NCBI GenBank assembly: GCA_963737065.1 | Contig: CAVTRC010000002.1 | Location: 192,001-256,000, forward strand | DNA from: Candidatus Eremiobacteria bacterium | GTDB lineage: Bacteria > Vulcanimicrobiota > Vulcanimicrobiia > Vulcanimicrobiales > Vulcanimicrobiaceae | Reading direction: 5' to 3' | DNA length: 64,000 nucleotides | Shown here: positions 2,727 through 39,830 of the stretch, one piece after another | Layout of the letters: every line of letters begins with the position of its first letter | Position numbering within the stretch: position 1 is the stretch's first letter | Made by a program: the position numbers and the translations under genes | The notes under the pieces: model-generated | What the model saw: only the letters and a program-made list of their open reading frames with translations | Databases searched by the model: none | What the model was told of the DNA's origin: nothing

Positions 2727-3952
2727 TCACATCACGAATGTGCTGACGAGGAAGACTCCGGCAGCAATGCTTACGACAGCCGTCGTCGCCCAGCCCGCGG
2801 CTTTGAGCCATGGCGAAAAGGGCGTCCCCTGCATCACTTCTTTGTCGCCTGCTGCAAGTAGCATGAAGACGAGGGTGATCGGCGTGGCGATGCCGCCGGC
2901 GATTGAACTAATGAAGAGCAGCCGAATCGGCGATACGCCGGCGAAAGCCACGGCACAGCCGATCGCGGCGGCGAGCAACATCGTGGCATAAAATCCGCGC
3001 GCCTGAAAGAACTTCGCATCCAGTTGACCGACCCAGCGGAACATCTCGGCGACCACGTAGCCGGAGGTCGCGAGCAAGACCGGGAGGGCCAGGAGTGCCG
3101 AACCGAGCAGTCCGATCCCAAAGAACGCCGAAGCGAACCGGCCGGCGAAGGGGAAAAGCGCGGATGCGGCCTGCTGCGCCGTTTCGACCGTCCGGTGGTG
3201 GACGCCCAAGGTTGCACCCGTCGCGATGACGATGAACCAAAACGTAATTCCGGCCGCGATCGCTCCGAGGGTTGAATCGATCTGAACTAAACCCAGCCGA
3301 CGAGCGGAGGCCGTTCCTCGGCGATCTCGATCCCTTGCCAGACATAGGCATAGGCGGTCAACGTCGTGGCTAAGAGCGCGATACCGCCGGCCGTATACGC
3401 CGGGGACGGTTCGAAATGGGGAACGAGGGAATCGAGGAGTATGCGGTGCCAGTCCGGATGAGCGAAGAGCGCGGCTGCGATGTACGCAAGAAAGGCGAGC
3501 GGAATGTAGATGAGGATGGACTGGATGCGCGCATAATCCCGAGATGAGCAGTGCGACGCTGAACCGGCCAACGGCAGGATCCACCACTGGTAAGGAAGAT
3601 GCGTCAACAACTGGAGCGCCGCGCCGCCCCCTTCGAGATCGGCCGAAAATGTCAGAACGTTCACCACGAGCACTGCTAGGAGCACGACGGCGGCGCTTAC
3701 AGTTCCGTAACGCTCTCGCACGATATCCTCGAGGCCACTGCCTTTGGCAACCGTGCCGACCTGCGAACTGATGGCTTGGACGACGGCGAGCATGGGGATC
3801 ACGAGCACGACCAGCCAGCCCAGTCCGTAGACCGTCGTCGACCCGATAACGGCCAGCGTCGCGACGGTGGTTGGATCATTGTCGGACGCGGCCGAAATGA
3901 TCCCCGGAACCATCGAGCGGAAGAGGCCGAACTTGCCCGCCGCGGGAAGCAT
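2727..3952 (-). pseudogene. NRAMP-family divalent metal transporter, frameshifted
   Basis: PGIISAASDNDPTT motif in ORF 3287-3952. The C-terminal TM helices lie in ORF 2727-3587. At least two frame switches (about 3560 and 3300). Confidence 0.75.
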
Positions 3953-26415: not shown

Positions 26416-26524
26416 AGAAGATGAGGGTCTAGGTTAGCTAGCTCCTTGTGTCGCTAACGCTGTTTGGGCGCCAGAGCTGGCGCAGCGTGCGGCGTTATTT
26501 CAGAAAGGAAAGGGGGTGAGATAC

Positions 26525-28075
26525 ATGGCTTCTGTACATTCAGTTATTCCGTCTGCAGCAGGCCCGACCGGCGCTGTTGCGTCAGCGCGTACGGGAACGG
26601 CGTTGAAAAGCGGGCTCGATTGGTCATCGCTCTCCGGAGCGATGGGCGTCAACGGTGCCGTATTTTCAAATCTTCTCGCTGGATCAAGCTCCGGCGCGAA
26701 TGTCGCTCCAAGCGCTTCGCAAAGTGTCCTAGCGCGCCTTACGGCTATGATGCAAAACGGAACGCCTTTATCGTCGATCATCGCTCAACTCTCGCAGAGC
26801 ATCGGCAACGCCGTACAGCAACAACTGACGGGAAAGCTGCCGCAAAGCGATCTCGATCGAATACGATCGTCGATCGCAACGTCGATCGCAAACGCGCTCG
26901 CTTCGCCGAGTAATGCGCCGCCGGGCAGCTCAGACCAACAAGTCGGCGCCCTCGCAACGCGGTTACAGCGGTTAATCGAATCGCTAGCGAGGGATACAAT
27001 GGAACGCTCCGGGCAGCAGAACGAATTCGCGGGAAGCATCTTGGACGCCAAATCGGCGAAAGACATCCCGGCCCAAGCACCAGCAAAACCAACGCCGAGC
27101 ACGACAATGCTCGACGTCTCTTCGCTCGTGCGCTCGTTACTGTCCGGCGCCGCTACGGCGCTCGACCAGCCACCACCCGCACCGGTCGCGCAAGCGCCGT
27201 GCGCCGCGGCTTGCGCTTCGCAGCCGGCGCTCGCTCCAGCGCAAACCGTCATCACGATGGCAAATGCACCGGATCTTCTCGCACGTATGCTCGTGCGCGC
27301 AGCCGGCGTCGACGCGCAAGCCTCCGCCAACGCCGGCGTTTCAAACGCTTCGGCCGGAACCGCAGGCAACGCCGCGCAAACACCGTCTGCGTTAGCGGCC
27401 CGATTCGAGTCCGCACTTTCGAACATCGTCTCAAACGCCACGCAGGCGTCTTCGGACGGATCGTTCGCGAACGGCGGACAAACGGGGCAATCCTTCGAGC
27501 GTCAATCCTCGCAGCAATCGCTTTCGAACCACGACTCGTCGCTGACGAACGCGCTCGCTGCACCGGCATTTTCGATGTCCGGAATCGTTCAATCTGCGGG
27601 CGAAACGACCGCGGGTGCATCGCGCGCCGGCGTCGACGCAGACGCCGTTGTCGAACAACTGGTCAAAAGCATGGTGATGCGCACGGACGCGCAAGGCTCC
27701 TCGGTAATTCAACTGCATCTGCAGCCCGAGAACCTGGGCGACGTGACGATGAAGATCACCGTTACGGGATCGCAGATCTCGGCGAACGTCGTCGCAGCCA
27801 ACGCCGACGTCCGCAATGCGTTGATGTCCAATCACCAGCAACTCGCACGTTCTCTCGCCGACGCCGGCTTGACGCTTTCCGGCTTCTCCGTCGACGTCTC
27901 GGGCGGCAATGCGGGCCGCGACCGTCAGAACAACGATCGCACGGCGGGCTTCGGCCGCCGCTACACCGTGCACGAACTGCACGGTGCATCGGAGTCCGAA
28001 ACGCCCGCGCTCGCCGCACTCGGTCCATCGATTCTCGACGGCTCGAGTTTGGCGTTATTCAACTACTTGGCATAA
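26525..28075 (+). CDS. fliK: flagellar hook-length control protein
   Basis: Ala/Ser/Pro-rich N-terminus; C-terminal LHLQPENLGDV..I..V..NADVRNAL..L.RSL..GL; precedes flgD. Confidence 0.88.
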   Translation: MASVHSVIPSAAGPTGAVASARTGTALKSGLDWSSLSGAMGVNGAVFSNLLAGSSSGANVAPSASQSVLARLTAMMQNGTPLSSIIAQLSQSIGNAVQQQLTGKLPQSDLDRIRSSIATSIANALASPSNAPPGSSDQQVGALATRLQRLIESLARDTMERSGQQNEFAGSILDAKSAKDIPAQAPAKPTPSTTMLDVSSLVRSLLSGAATALDQPPPAPVAQAPCAAACASQPALAPAQTVITMANAPDLLARMLVRAAGVDAQASANAGVSNASAGTAGNAAQTPSALAARFESALSNIVSNATQASSDGSFANGGQTGQSFERQSSQQSLSNHDSSLTNALAAPAFSMSGIVQSAGETTAGASRAGVDADAVVEQLVKSMVMRTDAQGSSVIQLHLQPENLGDVTMKITVTGSQISANVVAANADVRNALMSNHQQLARSLADAGLTLSGFSVDVSGGNAGRDRQNNDRTAGFGRRYTVHELHGASESETPALAALGPSILDGSSLALFNYLA

Positions 28076-28090
28076 GAAAAGAGGAAACAT

Positions 28091-28648
28091 ATGCCTTCGG
28101 CATTTGTAACCGGAACCACGGCGCAGCCGATCAGTTCGCTGATCGGTGTCAATGCTCCGACGACGTCTTCGTCGTCGAACAATGCGTCGCTCGGTCCCGA
28201 TGCGTTTCTTCAGTTGTTGACCACCGAGTTGCAGAACCAAGATCCCACGCAGCCGGAAGATCCGACGCAGTCGGTGACGCAGCTCGCGCAGATGTCGGAA
28301 CTGCAATATCAACAGCAGCTCACTTCGTCGTTCCAAAACTTCCAAAGCAACTTCGGCGTCATGCAAGCCGCATCGTTGATCGGCAAACAAGCAACGGTGA
28401 ACGTCGGAGCGGGCAGCGGAGCGTCCGCAGCGAGCAACTCGTCGTACGTAACCGGAACGATCCAATCCGTCGAAGTGCAGAACGGAGAGCCGTACTTCAC
28501 GATGGCGGACAGCAACGGCAAGGTCTACACCGATAACAACGGCAACGCGCTCATGTTCTCAACGGCCGAAATCACGGGCATCGGAGTGGGATCGGGAACG
28601 CCGGCCGGCACGGCGGGAACGACCAGCTCGAGCAAAATCAAGCTGTAG
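28091..28648 (+). CDS. flgD: flagellar hook capping protein
   Basis: FLQLLTTELQNQDPT.P, QLAQ.S.L, AASLIGK. Confidence 0.93.
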   Translation: MPSAFVTGTTAQPISSLIGVNAPTTSSSSNNASLGPDAFLQLLTTELQNQDPTQPEDPTQSVTQLAQMSELQYQQQLTSSFQNFQSNFGVMQAASLIGKQATVNVGAGSGASAASNSSYVTGTIQSVEVQNGEPYFTMADSNGKVYTDNNGNALMFSTAEITGIGVGSGTPAGTAGTTSSSKIKL

Positions 28649-28654
28649 ACTCTC

Positions 28655-29077
28655 ATGGACAACAACGAGATCAACCGCATAAACCAGCCCGGGATCATTC
28701 CCGGACCGGCCCCGCGTCCCGTCGGACGCCCGGTCGACATTCCGCCCACCGGAACGCCGACGTTCCGTTCGGTTCTCGATGCCGCGACGGCGGCTCCGCC
28801 GGCGACGTCCACAAGTGGATCGGAACCGCTCAAGTTCTCGGCGCACGCTATGCAGCGTCTGCAATCGCGCAACATCAGCCTCACCTCGGACGACGTGACA
28901 CGAATGAACGCGATGGCGGATAAAGCGGCGGCGAAAGGAGCGAAAAATTCGCTCTTCCTCGTTCGCGACGTCGCGATGGTCGTGAGTATCAAGAACCGCA
29001 CGGTCATCACCGCGGTCGACTCGGATTCGATGAAAGAAAACGTCTTTACGAACATCGACTCGGCGGCGATTATCTAA
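28655..29077 (+). CDS. TIGR02530-family flagellar operon protein
   Basis: LKFSAHAMQRLQSRNI, KAAAKGAKNSL, VVSIKNRTVITA, VFTNIDSA; between flgD and flgE. Confidence 0.88.
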   Translation: MDNNEINRINQPGIIPGPAPRPVGRPVDIPPTGTPTFRSVLDAATAAPPATSTSGSEPLKFSAHAMQRLQSRNISLTSDDVTRMNAMADKAAAKGAKNSLFLVRDVAMVVSIKNRTVITAVDSDSMKENVFTNIDSAAII

Positions 29078-29095
29078 AACAACTATTATTACTAC

Positions 29096-29153
29096 CCGAG
29101 GCGGACCGCATGCGGAGCCTCGGCCGCGGCGCGGAAGGATTGAAACGCCGCGG
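29096..29153 (+). ncRNA. candidate cis-regulatory two-hairpin RNA in the flgE leader
   Basis: P1 CCGAGGC/GCCTCGG (29096-123) with inner GGA-CCG catg CGG-A; P2 CCGCGGCG/CGCCGCGG (29124-153) with purine-rich loop CGGAAGGATTGAAA. Confidence 0.55.
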
Positions 29154-29174
29154 ATCTACATGTGAGGTCAATAC

Positions 29175-31064
29175 ATGGCTTTCGATGCATTGAACATCGG
29201 GGTTAGCGGCCTGGACGCGTATCAGAGTTGGATCGACATGATTTCGAACAACATCGCGAATACGTCCACGACCGGGTTCAAAGGTCAACGCATGACCTTC
29301 GCGGACCAGTTTTATCAACAATTGCAAGGCGCAACCGGCCCATCGCAATCGCAAGGCGGAACGAATCCGCAAGATTTCGGTCTAGGCGTGAAGGTCAATA
29401 CCGTCGATACGCAGTTCGGTCAGGGCGGGCAACAAACCACCGGAATCAACACCGACATGATGATCAGCGGCGACGGATTCTTCGTGCTGCGCAGTCCGAA
29501 CGGTTCGAACACGCCGGTCTACACGCGTGACGGCGCGTTTTCGCTCAACCAGAACGGTTTGCTCTACGATCCGGGTTCGGGACTTGCCGTGCAGGGCTAC
29601 ACGGCGAACTCGAGCGGTCAGATCACCCAGACCGGCACGCCGTCGGACATCAACATTCCGATCGGTTTGACGGAACAGGCGACGGCAACGGGCGCCGGCG
29701 TGAAAGTCGGTCCGAACACCAGCGATCAGGTCTTCGATATGCAGATGGGCGGTAATCTCGACCAAACGCAATGGCAGCAACAGTTCGAGAACCACATCGG
29801 CGCATCGCCGACACCGGGCACCACAAAGACGATCTCAACGACGATCTACGACTCGCTCGGAAATGCGCACCAAGCAACGATCACGTATACTCCTGACACC
29901 GGCGGTGCGACGCCCGCGTCCTCGGCGTTGACCGCGAATGGCGCGCTCGCGGGCGGCGGGACACTCCTCACGGCCGCACCGACCTTTCCTCTGGACGGCA
30001 CGTTCAAAGGACCGAGTCCGACGACGGTTACCGTGGCCGTGCAGAACGGCGCGAGCGGACCGTATGCGCAGATTTCCGACGGTAACGGAAATACGATGAC
30101 CGGTTCCGCGAATCAAACGGTTACGTTCGACGGCGCGACCTTCACGCTCGGCAATTTCACTGCAGCTGATGCGGCGTCCGGAGCTTCGTCAACGTTTAGT
30201 CTCACTGCGGCGACGAACGGATTGCCGGCATCGGTCGACAATGCTGCGGGAGTCGCTGAAGCACCCGCGACGCGTTGGTCGGTAAGCGTTAGTTTCGCCG
30301 ATGGAACGCAATTCTCGGCGATCACGCAGGGCGCGAGCGAGAATGGCGCGGGCGTCGTCACACCGGCCACGACCGCAACGGCGAGTTCCGGTACGATCGG
30401 ATACGCGTATTTCGATCAGAACGGTCAGTTCATCAACACGTCGTCGATCGAAACGGTGCCGGCCGGTGGCGTGATCGGGCCGAATCAAGCGGCGTACCTG
30501 CACACGACCGGCAATCAGCCTTCGGTTACCGACGGCAACCAACTCAACATCGCCGTTTGGGGAACGGGCGCCGGAAATAATTCGACCGCCGGCGGTGTGC
30601 CCGCGACGCCCGGACCGATCGGTCTTGACTTCTCGGAGAACGCAAGCCTCGCCGGCGACTATTCAGCGAACGTCGTTTCACAGAACGGATACGCCGCCGG
30701 AACGCTCTCGAACATTTCCGTCGGACAGGACGGAGCGATCACCGGGTCGTTCACCAATGGCCAAACCAAAACGCTCGCGCAGCTCGCGATCGCAACGTTC
30801 CAAAACGAAGACGGACTGCAGCGGCTGGGCAGCAACCAGTTTGGGGCTACCGCGGCGTCGGGTCTCGCTCAACTCGGTACTGCCGCAAGCGGACGTTTCG
30901 GCAGCATCGTCGACGGAGCGTTGGAAGAATCGAACGTCGATCTTGCCGATCAATTTACGAAGCTCATCGTGGCGCAACGTGCATTCGAAGCGAATTCCCG
31001 CGGCATCACGACGGCCGACCAGAACTTGATCGACCTCATCAACATGCGCGCTTCGGAGAACTAA
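29175..31064 (+). CDS. flgE: flagellar hook protein (long form)
   Basis: GVSGL..ISNNIAN..TTGFK, GDGFF, YTRDGAF, IYDSLGNAH, LEESNVDLA..LIVAQRAFEANSR. Confidence 0.95.
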   Translation: MAFDALNIGVSGLDAYQSWIDMISNNIANTSTTGFKGQRMTFADQFYQQLQGATGPSQSQGGTNPQDFGLGVKVNTVDTQFGQGGQQTTGINTDMMISGDGFFVLRSPNGSNTPVYTRDGAFSLNQNGLLYDPGSGLAVQGYTANSSGQITQTGTPSDINIPIGLTEQATATGAGVKVGPNTSDQVFDMQMGGNLDQTQWQQQFENHIGASPTPGTTKTISTTIYDSLGNAHQATITYTPDTGGATPASSALTANGALAGGGTLLTAAPTFPLDGTFKGPSPTTVTVAVQNGASGPYAQISDGNGNTMTGSANQTVTFDGATFTLGNFTAADAASGASSTFSLTAATNGLPASVDNAAGVAEAPATRWSVSVSFADGTQFSAITQGASENGAGVVTPATTATASSGTIGYAYFDQNGQFINTSSIETVPAGGVIGPNQAAYLHTTGNQPSVTDGNQLNIAVWGTGAGNNSTAGGVPATPGPIGLDFSENASLAGDYSANVVSQNGYAAGTLSNISVGQDGAITGSFTNGQTKTLAQLAIATFQNEDGLQRLGSNQFGATAASGLAQLGTAASGRFGSIVDGALEESNVDLADQFTKLIVAQRAFEANSRGITTADQNLIDLINMRASEN

Positions 31065-31076
31065 CAGACTTTATCT

Positions 31077-31325
31077 GCCAAAGCTAAAGCTTTGTCGGCT
31101 AAAGTCGCGTGATATGTGTAGCAGCAACGCCAAAGCTAAAGCTTTGTCGGCTAAAGTCGCGTGATATGTGTAGCAGCAACGCCAAAGCTAAAGCTTTGTC
31201 GGCTAAAGTCGCGTGATATGTGTAGCAGCAAGGCCAAAGCTAAAGCTTTGTCGGCTAAAGTCGCGTGATATGTGTAGCAGCAAGGCCAAAGCTAAAGCTT
31301 TGTCGACTAAAGTCAGCTGATATGT
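31077..31325. repeat. tandem array of 52-bp hairpin-containing units (4 near-identical + 1 degenerate)
   Basis: Unit GCCAAAGCTAAAGCTTTGTCGGCTAAAGTCGCGTGATATGTGTAGCAGCAA(C/G) starting at 31077, 31129, 31181, 31233 and 31285. Confidence 0.95.
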
Positions 31326-31394
31326 ATTGCCAAGGATGGCGAGTACTCGGGGCGGCAGAGCAGCATCTGCCGCCCTTACCTTTGGAGGTTCCCC

Positions 31395-38762: not shown

Positions 38763-39830
38763 ATGGCTAAGCCGGAGCAAACCGAAAAGGCCACTCCAAA
38801 GCGACGCGAGGAAGCACGCGGCAAAGGCCAAGTCCCACGCAGTACGGAGTTGGCCGCCGGCGTGATCTTCCTCGCGGTCGTTCTCGTTCTGCATGCGTTC
38901 TTCGCGCCGATCATGGATTCGCTTGAGGGCTCCACGCGCGGATATTTTTCGCGCATCGGTGATATGCATTCAGACCTCACGATCCATTCCGTGGGCGGCT
39001 TCTTCATTCAAGCCGCATCCGGCGTGATGCTGGTCGTCCTCGTTGTGTTCGCGCTCGCGTTTTTCTTCGGCATCGTCGTCAATATCGCGCAATTCGGTTT
39101 TCTTTTCACATTGAACTCGATCAAGCCGTCGCTAGGAAAACTGAATCCGGTCAACGGCTTCAAGAACATGTTCAGCAAACGCATCGCCGTCAATCTGGGC
39201 AAGCAGCTGCTGAAGCTCGCCGCCGTCGCGATCATTCTGTACGTCGAGATCGCGAAGAACATCTCGTTTTTCGCGCAGGCCGGTCAAATGTCGCCCGCCG
39301 GCACGATCGAAAGCATGATGAATCTCATTTACGGCATCGCGTGGAAGTTCGGTTTACTTCTCGTCGTGGTCGGGCTGCTCGACTATGCCTACGAACGGTG
39401 GCAACTCGAAGAGAACTTGAAGATGACCAAACAAGAAGTCAAGGACGAGTGGCGGCAATCGGAAGGCAATCCCGAAGCGAAGGGTGCGATGAAGAAGCGG
39501 CAACGCGAGTCATCCCGCAGGCGGATGATGCAAGCCGTACCGCGCGCGACCGTCATCGTTACGAACCCCACGCACTTTGCCGTGGCATTGCAGTGGGACG
39601 AAGCGCAGATGGAAGCCCCGGTCGTCATCGCAAAAGGCGCCGACTTACTCGCAAAGCGCATCCGCGACATCGCGCGCGAACACAATATTCCGATCATGGA
39701 GAATCCGCCGCTTGCGCGGACGCTCTACGACAAAGTCGAACTCGATCGAGCGATCCCGCCAAATCTCTATGCAGCGGTCGCGCAGGTCATTGCGTTCGTC
39801 TACAAACTTAAGAGGAAGACGATAGCTTAA
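38763..39830 (+). CDS. flhB: flagellar export protein
   Basis: TEKATPKR, MTKQEVKDE..EGNPE, autocleavage site NPTH. Confidence 0.97.
   Translation: MAKPEQTEKATPKRREEARGKGQVPRSTELAAGVIFLAVVLVLHAFFAPIMDSLEGSTRGYFSRIGDMHSDLTIHSVGGFFIQAASGVMLVVLVVFALAFFFGIVVNIAQFGFLFTLNSIKPSLGKLNPVNGFKNMFSKRIAVNLGKQLLKLAAVAIILYVEIAKNISFFAQAGQMSPAGTIESMMNLIYGIAWKFGLLLVVVGLLDYAYERWQLEENLKMTKQEVKDEWRQSEGNPEAKGAMKKRQRESSRRRMMQAVPRATVIVTNPTHFAVALQWDEAQMEAPVVIAKGADLLAKRIRDIAREHNIPIMENPPLARTLYDKVELDRAIPPNLYAAVAQVIAFVYKLKRKTIA

Follow-up and report, generated by a model that had tools for sequence, protein, structure and literature searches.

What is the function of the 97 nucleotides (nt) that separate a gene of the TIGR02530 family from flgE, the gene of the flagellar hook protein, in a Candidatus Eremiobacteria bacterium (GenBank assembly GCA_963737065.1), and is the protein encoded just upstream involved in it? 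The window analysed here is a 64,000-nt stretch (positions 192,001 to 256,000 of the forward strand of contig CAVTRC010000002.1) of the 3.08-Mb, two-contig genome that was searched, and unprefixed coordinates are positions in this window. A sequence-only reading of this DNA had proposed that the TIGR02530 protein and two hairpins in the gap form a protein-RNA switch for hook synthesis. Our main reading, to which we give a probability of roughly 0.5, is that the gap is a conserved structured leader RNA of flgE, with a GGA bulge in its first hairpin (P1) and a GANNGANNGA loop in its second (P2), 11-40 nt upstream of the start, and that its most likely partner in trans is the TIGR02530 protein. 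The leader RNA is real, widespread, apparently undescribed and tightly linked to TIGR02530, and the two probably constitute an undescribed switch that tunes hook-protein production.

A two-hairpin RNA is conserved in front of flgE

RNA folding of positions 29078-29190 returned two abutting hairpins (-40.4 kcal/mol, z score -2.44; 4 of 200 shuffles were as stable). The sequence-only reading had placed two abutting GC stems in the 97-nt gap, with a GGA/A internal loop in P1 and a purine-rich 14-nt loop in P2, and folding recovered each of these elements at the same coordinates. The P2 loop of the window is CGGAAGGATTGAAA, within which GAAGGATTGA (29134-29143) contains three GA steps, four bases apart. 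The hairpins had been said to end about 10 nt before the ribosome-binding site of flgE, and the distance from the end of P2 to the GAGG of that site is indeed 11 nt. They had also been taken not to be a terminator, which stands: no T-run follows P2 and a terminator scan called no site at 29096-29175, so that the hairpins do not qualify as an intrinsic terminator or attenuator. The folding energy of this single sequence is only mildly unusual, and it is conservation and covariation in other genomes that show the hairpins not to be a chance pair.

TIGR02530 was present in 20 of 41 related genomes. The gap between TIGR02530 and flgE measures 89-120 nt in all 20 of these loci, each of which folds independently into the same two hairpins; the stem sequences vary among them while the GGA bulge is kept, and the P2 loop has the form GA-N3-A-N2-GA in every one. 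A seed alignment was assembled from 13 trimmed cores with MAFFT, the structure being imposed by hand (RNAalifold returned no pairs from a raw MAFFT alignment of the whole gaps because that alignment was out of register). In the seed, 96.5% of cells were paired and 10 of the 19 pairs had changed on both sides; its covariation score was equalled by none of 500 shuffles, and slid controls paired in 31-42% of cells.

A covariance model of the 13-core seed (R1) was compared with a cross-phylum set consisting of the best 80 of 579 confirmed TIGR02530 loci, for which one genome per species had been scanned. The record labels of these 80 loci include Eremiobacterota, several classes of Bacillota, Actinomycetota, Bdellovibrionota, Armatimonadota, Spirochaetia, Planctomycetales, KSB1, Ignavibacteriales and candidate division FCPU426, about ten phyla. 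R1 gave 47 matches at an expectation value (E) of at most 1, 46 of them immediately 3' of TIGR02530 on the gene strand and the 47th on the opposite strand of one such site. A second model (R2), made from the 44 R1 hits at E<=0.05, gave 71 matches in 70 of the 80 loci, all of them on the gene strand and starting after the stop codon of TIGR02530 and before the start of flgE; the 414 kb of locus DNA contained no off-target match at E<=1. The structure downstream of TIGR02530 is therefore conserved and covarying across phyla, which the sequence-only reading had named as a check of its proposal.

The RNA is under selection both for its stems and for specific unpaired letters. In the alignment of 44 hits, which was fitted to the R1 model and is hence biased towards its structure, 96.4% of cells were paired, 17 of 19 pairs were compensatory and the covariation score was 0.607, against 0.216 in shuffles. 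The corresponding figures for the 71 R2 hits were 93.6% and 0.567 against 0.175; the number of pairs changed on both sides (17) was matched by 54 of 500 shuffles, and that measure alone is not distinctive. Compensatory changes affected all seven pairs of the P1 outer stem and all nine pairs of the P2 stem in both alignments. The unpaired letters of P1 were GGNCC in 70 of the 71 hits and GGACC in 58, the bulge itself being GGA in 58, GGT in nine, GGC in two and GGG in one. The P2 loop had the GA-N3-A-N2-GA form in 53 of these hits and contained GANNGANNGA in 48, where shuffled sequences would be expected to show the latter 0.019 times each. Of the two hairpins, P1 is the universal one; the typical P2 loop is absent in Bdellovibrionota, Solirubrobacterales, FCPU426 and some other loci.

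The position of the element was surveyed in 59 loci, for which the flgE starts came from tblastn and are approximate. The first paired base of P1 follows the TIGR02530 stop by a median of 16 nt (range -4 to 58), and P1 abuts or overlaps the stop codon in 15 of the 59 loci. About 24 nt (median) separate the end of P2 from the flgE start, an unstructured linker that contains the ribosome-binding site. Two further gaps are unusual in layout. The 248-nt gap of an unclassified bacterium (locus L086) holds two tandem copies of the motif, at 2923-2980 and 3056-3115, and in the 203-nt gap of a member of the Fimbriimonadaceae (L077, 2821-3025) GACCTATA-like short repeats replace a recognisable motif.

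The leader accompanies the TIGR02530 gene

The element is nearly single-copy. R1 matched its own genome once only, at the flgE leader, and four whole Bacillota genomes that carry TIGR02530 each had one match at E<0.01, again at the flgE leader (a second match in one of these genomes is weak: E 0.19, 27 bits). We compared by hand the lists of carriers and of motifs in a sample of 151 Bacilli genomes, where TIGR02530 was found in 69, FlgD in 111 and CsrA in 92. With strict filters, R2 matched 57 of these genomes, once in each, and 56 of the 57 carry TIGR02530, with the match adjoining the gene. The 13 carriers that had no strict match showed the motif at the expected place when the filters were turned off (20.8-44.9 bits), so that in total all 69 carriers have the motif beside TIGR02530. 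FlgD was found in 42 of the 82 non-carriers, and none of the 82 had the motif at flgE; the lone match in a non-carrier (29.8 bits), between rpsB and tsf, was rejected as a chance hairpin. Eight of the Bacilli genomes (G050, G075, G114, G130, G144, G158, G171 and G183) have TIGR02530 frames of 150-265 residues that score 60-73 bits, under the cut-off; the leader motif was found in all eight and CsrA was undetected in them.

A sample of 101 genomes from the phylum of the window contained 13 carriers, of which 11 had adjacent matches under strict filters and the other two had weak or P1-only adjacent matches with the filters off; no motif match was found in the 88 non-carriers. The genomes in both samples are partly kin and not independent, and these tables describe a strong association rather than a statistical test. 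A strict co-occurrence of motif and gene had been named as a check of the proposal: it holds throughout the Bacilli sample, in carriers and non-carriers alike, and breaks down in Selenomonas and Centipeda, which have the protein without the motif.

Two carrier genomes of the phylum of the window have an extra copy of the motif away from TIGR02530 (L194 2001-2062, minus strand; L193 1001-1061, plus strand). One of these lies 30 nt before flgG, between flgF and flgG, and the other some 145 nt upstream of a flgF-flgG pair; P1 reads GGACU rather than GGACC in both. These copies indicate that the element serves axial-protein genes as a 5' leader, rather than forming a 3' appendage of TIGR02530, and that whatever reads it can act in trans.

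The locus and its surroundings

The gene order in the window is fliK-flgD-TIGR02530-flgE-flbD-motA-motB, followed by fliM, and the coordinates of the features discussed here are collected in Table 1. The NCBIfam models of FlgD score under their cut-offs on the flgD of the window, the end of which is 6 nt from the TIGR02530 gene. TIGR02530 had been described as commonly lying between flgD and flgE; besides the order in the window, a tblastn search found a FlgE-type N-terminus 3' of TIGR02530 in 78 of the 80 cross-phylum loci, one more was seen by eye, and the remaining locus is incomplete.

Table 1. Coordinates of the flgE leader, its parts and the adjoining genes in the window.
Feature	Position	Strand	Details
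fliK	26516-28075		upstream of flgD
flgD (hook cap protein), upstream neighbour	28091-28648	+	Pfam FlgD and FlgD Tudor domains; FLQLL at residues 39-43
TIGR02530/PF12611 gene, 140 residues plus stop	28655-29077	+	TIGR02530 (flg_new) 104.7 bits, cut-off 83.2; PF12611 (Flagellar_put) 49.2 bits, cut-off 21.1, E 4e-13
N-terminal region of TIGR02530, residues 1-55	28655-28819	+	low-confidence, rich in Pro/Ser/Thr/Ala (also Gly); pLDDT 59-79; short helix 37-46
Folded C-terminal domain of TIGR02530, residues 55-140	28817-29074	+	strand, two helices, three strands, short helix, strand (AlphaFold2)
flgE leader (TIGR02530-flgE intergenic region, 97 nt)	29078-29174	+	
P1 hairpin	29096-29123	+	outer stem 29096-29102 with 29117-29123 (7 base pairs), from folding
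Inside of P1	29103-29116		GGA bulge 29103-29105; inner stem 29106-29108 with 29113-29115 (3 base pairs); loop 29109-29112; opposing A 29116
P2 hairpin	29124-29153	+	stem 29124-29131 with 29146-29153 (8 base pairs); 14-nt loop 29132-29145
Linker up to the flgE start	29154-29174	+	21 nt; ribosome-binding site GAGG (29165-29168)
flgE (hook protein, 629 residues), gene led by the RNA	29175-31064	+	TIGR03506 267 bits; Pfam FlgE/F/G domains

A hairpin that would sequester the flgE ribosome-binding site is also predicted in the window; it depends on the MAFD N-terminus of FlgE in this order, and no counterpart was found among the Bacillota leaders. A sigma-28-like promoter that had been picked out by eye in the 3' end of the TIGR02530 gene was dropped, as it has no -35 match and a promoter scan found none. 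With regard to transcription, a relative's contig from a metatranscriptome (57 letters differ in 447 bases) spans the end of TIGR02530, the gap and the start of flgE, which is compatible with co-transcription of the two genes, if weakly, given that carry-over of DNA is possible. A single metatranscriptome run contained 7% of the words sampled; at 85-95% likeness its contigs come from relatives, and they carry no information on transcript ends, strand or level.

Several features outside the leader were noted in passing. The 330-nt gap between flgE and flbD, which as a whole folds with a z score of -3.5, contains 4.8 tandem copies of a 52-nt unit (31077-31325, 97% matches) and, 3' of them, a GC-rich hairpin of 11 base pairs without a clear T-run (31349-31375); elsewhere in the genome this unit has only one partial match of 48 nt (84%), on contig C1. 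Just before fliK, with which the flagellar cluster begins, lie at 23405-26415 genes that resemble components of anthranilate/aminodeoxychorismate synthase and DAHP synthase, judged by eye from their translations. The flagellar FlhB is encoded at 38763-39830, and the genome has three further FlhB-family matches, at C1:2098949-2099914, C2:169964-170182 and C1:1483250-1483513: a second full-length FlhB/YscU (248.8 bits), a short match to the C-terminus only (55 bits) and a weak N-terminal one that is under the cut-off.

The TIGR02530 protein

The protein encoded upstream of the leader scores above the cut-offs of both family models (Table 1) and has 6091 relatives at E<=0.001; 1885 representative clusters were counted for the family at the same threshold. 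The family was found neither in E. coli nor in 13 other named control genomes, and one study reports that megaphage G encodes a member (ps41/gp136; PMC12484599). No functional study of a TIGR02530/PF12611 protein and no description of the leader was found in the literature, in which subscription journals were thinly covered, and to that extent the family is uncharacterised, as the sequence-only reading had said.

An AlphaFold2 model based on an alignment of 124 relatives had a mean predicted local distance difference test score (pLDDT) of 86.4, with residues 60-140 at 94-97, and it divides the protein into a low-confidence N-terminal region and a folded C-terminal domain. The invariant or near-invariant residues of this domain are S62, H64, A65, R68, R72, K94, G95, T132 and D135. 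A Foldseek search with the model gave RelE-type toxins as its top rows, with no match below E 0.25, and the ESM Atlas gave no usable match for residues 55-140. Sub-threshold matches to DUF4258 were found in 72 of the 124 relatives (best E 0.0032). RelE/ParE toxins share a small alpha/beta fold, in which two helices pack against an antiparallel sheet; they come in two-gene operons with their antitoxins, and they cut mRNA or poison gyrase. No antitoxin-like small open reading frame lies beside TIGR02530, its neighbours being flgD and flgE. On these grounds, a RelE/DUF4258-like C-terminal domain, as the sequence-only reading had suggested, is plausible and not established.

The N-terminal region is unconserved apart from one short motif. 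The window protein has FRSVL at residues F37-L41 (encoded at 28763-28777); across the 124 relatives the phenylalanine is invariant (median distance to the N-terminus, 36 residues) and is followed, four positions on, by Leu, Phe, Met, Val or Ile in every one. According to PMC10965912, the FXXXPhi gate recognition motif is that through which rod/hook-type subunits dock at the C-domain of FlhB. In PMC8983047 the FlgD motif is placed at residues 36-40, and all Salmonella rod/hook subunits are said to have the motif at least 30 residues from the N-terminus. In the genome of the window, FlgD, FliK and FlgE have an FxxxPhi at residues 39, 50 and 42. By its sequence and model, TIGR02530 thus has what characterises a rod/hook-type substrate, namely the motif some 30 residues or more into a disordered N-terminus (pLDDT 59-79).

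How the leader may be read

We suggest that the leader acts post-transcriptionally, and it probably controls the translation or the stability of flgE mRNA. The most probable trans-acting partner is TIGR02530, encoded just upstream, which would bind the leader or cleave at it; the odds that this protein is the reader are about even. As predicted here, it would be a small RelE/DUF4258-like domain, rich in conserved His, Arg and Lys, joined to a disordered N-terminus with FxxxPhi. More tentatively, export of TIGR02530 as an early substrate might determine how much of it is in the cytoplasm: flagellar type III export in rod/hook mode would drain it, so that its level would be high as long as there is no export gate and once more when hook completion has switched the machine to filament-type export. 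FlgE would then be made mainly while the export machine accepts hook protein, and shut down otherwise. Such export would explain why an export-type N-terminus is found on a RelE-like domain. The most specific form of the proposal, in which TIGR02530 is a secreted RelE-derived regulator that occupies or cleaves the P1-P2 leader of flgE (and of flgF/flgG in some lineages) and is exported via FxxxL, is doubtful.

A number of observations weigh against reading the locus as a leader governed by TIGR02530. Ten of the 80 cross-phylum loci had no R2 match; two of these are true absences, four look P1-like by eye and four are unclear. In Selenomonas and Centipeda the gap between TIGR02530 and flgE is down to 22 and 15 nt and the motif is absent (the whole Centipeda genome gave no match either), and TIGR02530 keeps all its conserved residues; a relaxation of residues was looked for in the motif-less lineages and not found. 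Since these lineages keep the protein without the RNA, TIGR02530 has a role that is independent of the leader. The P2 loop motif is absent in 18 of the 71 hits, and we found no protein changes that match the GGA, GGT and GGC variants of the bulge. The co-occurrence could in part reflect a single inherited cassette of gene plus leader, as kin genomes are not independent. The link to a known fold is also short of family thresholds: DUF4258 (PF14076) matched the window protein at 13.6 bits, against a gathering cut-off of 25 and over profile positions 1-16 only; hhalign against 16 DUF4258 domains gave a probability of 77% (E 2e-5) over just 18 columns, the FS.HA..R...R.I helix; and a profile search by sequence found no solved structure at E<=1. 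FxxxPhi is a short motif, and the export of TIGR02530 is a prediction, as are binding of the leader, its cleavage and the regulation of flgE, which were derived from sequence and model. Of the switch that the sequence-only reading proposed, a conserved leader linked to TIGR02530 is borne out, and the RelE/DUF4258 fold is not established.

The leader may instead be an element of mRNA processing or stabilisation that needs no dedicated protein, with TIGR02530 being an exported hook-assembly factor co-inherited as a cassette. In that case a cut 5' of P1 in the polycistronic flagellar transcript would leave the two GC-rich hairpins at the new 5' end, where they would shield flgE from 5'-dependent decay or act as a ribosome standby, raising the output of FlgE above that of its neighbours. 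We consider this unlikely, although it accommodates a good deal: stable hairpins 5' of an unstructured linker with the ribosome-binding site, a P1 that often begins at the stop codon of the upstream gene, copies of the motif before flgG and flgF, which encode other high-copy axial proteins, a TIGR02530 that persists unchanged where the RNA is absent and whose N-terminus resembles that of an exported subunit, and, weakly in view of possible DNA carry-over, the metatranscriptome contig that runs from the gene end through the gap into flgE. Yet a stabiliser requires stems only, whereas conservation is strongest in the unpaired letters (the GGA bulge, GGNCC and GANNGANNGA), which points to a specific reader of the RNA; nor would it be expected that the 42 flagellated Bacilli without TIGR02530 never have the motif at flgE. 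A sensor of another kind could also conserve unpaired nucleotides across phyla, and the lack of a match to any known RNA family would suit it: the RNA might respond to a ligand, as a riboswitch, to another flagellar protein or to the ribosome, with TIGR02530 unrelated to its action. This we regard as very improbable, given that about 63 nt in two simple hairpins, with no multi-stem junction or pseudoknot, leave little room for a ligand pocket, that no alternative terminator or pairing against the ribosome-binding site is conserved, and that the strict link to TIGR02530 would go unexplained.

GGA is the core of CsrA sites, and the sequence-only reading had itself offered CsrA as an alternative. 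Here CsrA, gated by FliW, would bind the P1 GGA, the 3' GGR or the GA loop of P2 and repress flgE as it does flagellin. The genes for both proteins stand side by side on the other contig of the genome (C1:234573-235219, minus strand), most sequences have an exposed GGA on the 5' side of P1 and GGA or GGG on its 3' side, and CsrA is encoded, besides the genome of the window, in 59 of the 69 Bacilli carriers and in four of five carriers of other phyla, a further point that tells against TIGR02530 as the reader. CsrA does not track the motif, since 33 CsrA-positive Bacilli genomes are without it; conversely, ten of the 69 carriers have the motif with CsrA undetected, although eight of these ten are the genomes with a sub-cut-off TIGR02530 (60-73 bits) and may be one group. 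CsrA-regulated leaders have two or more GGA sites, as a rule in hairpin loops, one of which overlaps the ribosome-binding site. Here the conserved GGA occupies an internal loop between G-C pairs rather than a hairpin loop, 12 of 71 hits have GGT, GGC or GGG in the bulge, the ribosome-binding site has no conserved GGA, and a GGA in the P2 loop is confined to the genus of the window. That the GGA is a CsrA site is improbable, in a genome that does have csrA and fliW. Compared with these alternatives, a protein-RNA switch of TIGR02530 and the flgE leader is the best-supported reading, and it is unproven.

Relation to known systems

The leader matched no Rfam 15 family at E<=10 in positions 28000-30000, and none at the gathering score when the whole window was searched; 12 carrier loci from other phyla likewise gave no match at E<=1. 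Termite-flg (RF01729) and flg-Rhizobiales (RF01736) are, like the flgE leader, candidate cis-regulatory RNAs tied to flagellar genes; according to Weinberg et al. 2010 (PMC2864571), they are restricted to termite gut samples or to Rhizobiales. The leader differs from both in giving no Rfam match, and RF01729 had no match at the flgE leaders of five carrier genomes.

One close parallel is the FliW-CsrA-Hag switch of Bacillus subtilis and relatives, in which control is likewise post-transcriptional, through a structured 5' leader with an exposed GGA, and in which the availability of the regulator reports the export of a flagellar subunit. That switch acts on flagellin, whereas the module described here belongs to a hook gene, has its GGA in an internal loop and has a candidate partner of another fold. 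The FlgM/sigma-28 checkpoint resembles the proposal in that a small, partly disordered regulator is removed by type III export, which couples expression to assembly; FlgM, in contrast, is a late (filament-type) substrate that acts on transcription via a sigma factor, and TIGR02530 has the motif of an early substrate and would, as predicted from its sequence, act on the leader. From the RelE/ParE toxins and DUF4258, TIGR02530 is set apart by scores under every family threshold, the absence of an adjoining antitoxin, its conservation in the flagellar operons of many phyla, the extra N-terminal region of 55 residues and a conserved C-terminal ENVFTNIDS strand (PF12611).

Judging by the title of their paper of 2000, Bonifield, Yamaguchi and Hughes reportedly found a post-transcriptional regulation of FlgE in Salmonella that responds to the stage of assembly. 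The flgE-leader module could yield control of FlgE of the kind named in that title; no TIGR02530 was found in E. coli or the 13 other control genomes. The module offers a testable handle on FlgE control, as it consists of a 63-nt RNA and a 140-residue protein, both conserved in Eremiobacterota, Bacillota, Bdellovibrionota, Actinomycetota and other groups. Several carriers of TIGR02530 and the leader are culturable, for example Cohnella, Desulforamulus, Lucifera and Fuchsiella. If the proposal is true, an uncharacterised and widespread family of 1885 representative clusters would gain a function and flagellar biology an undescribed RNA family; if the RelE link is also true, a toxin fold would have been recruited as a dedicated regulator. 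With the proposed export of TIGR02530, the switch would mirror the FlgM checkpoint at the level of RNA, and would do so in about ten phyla.

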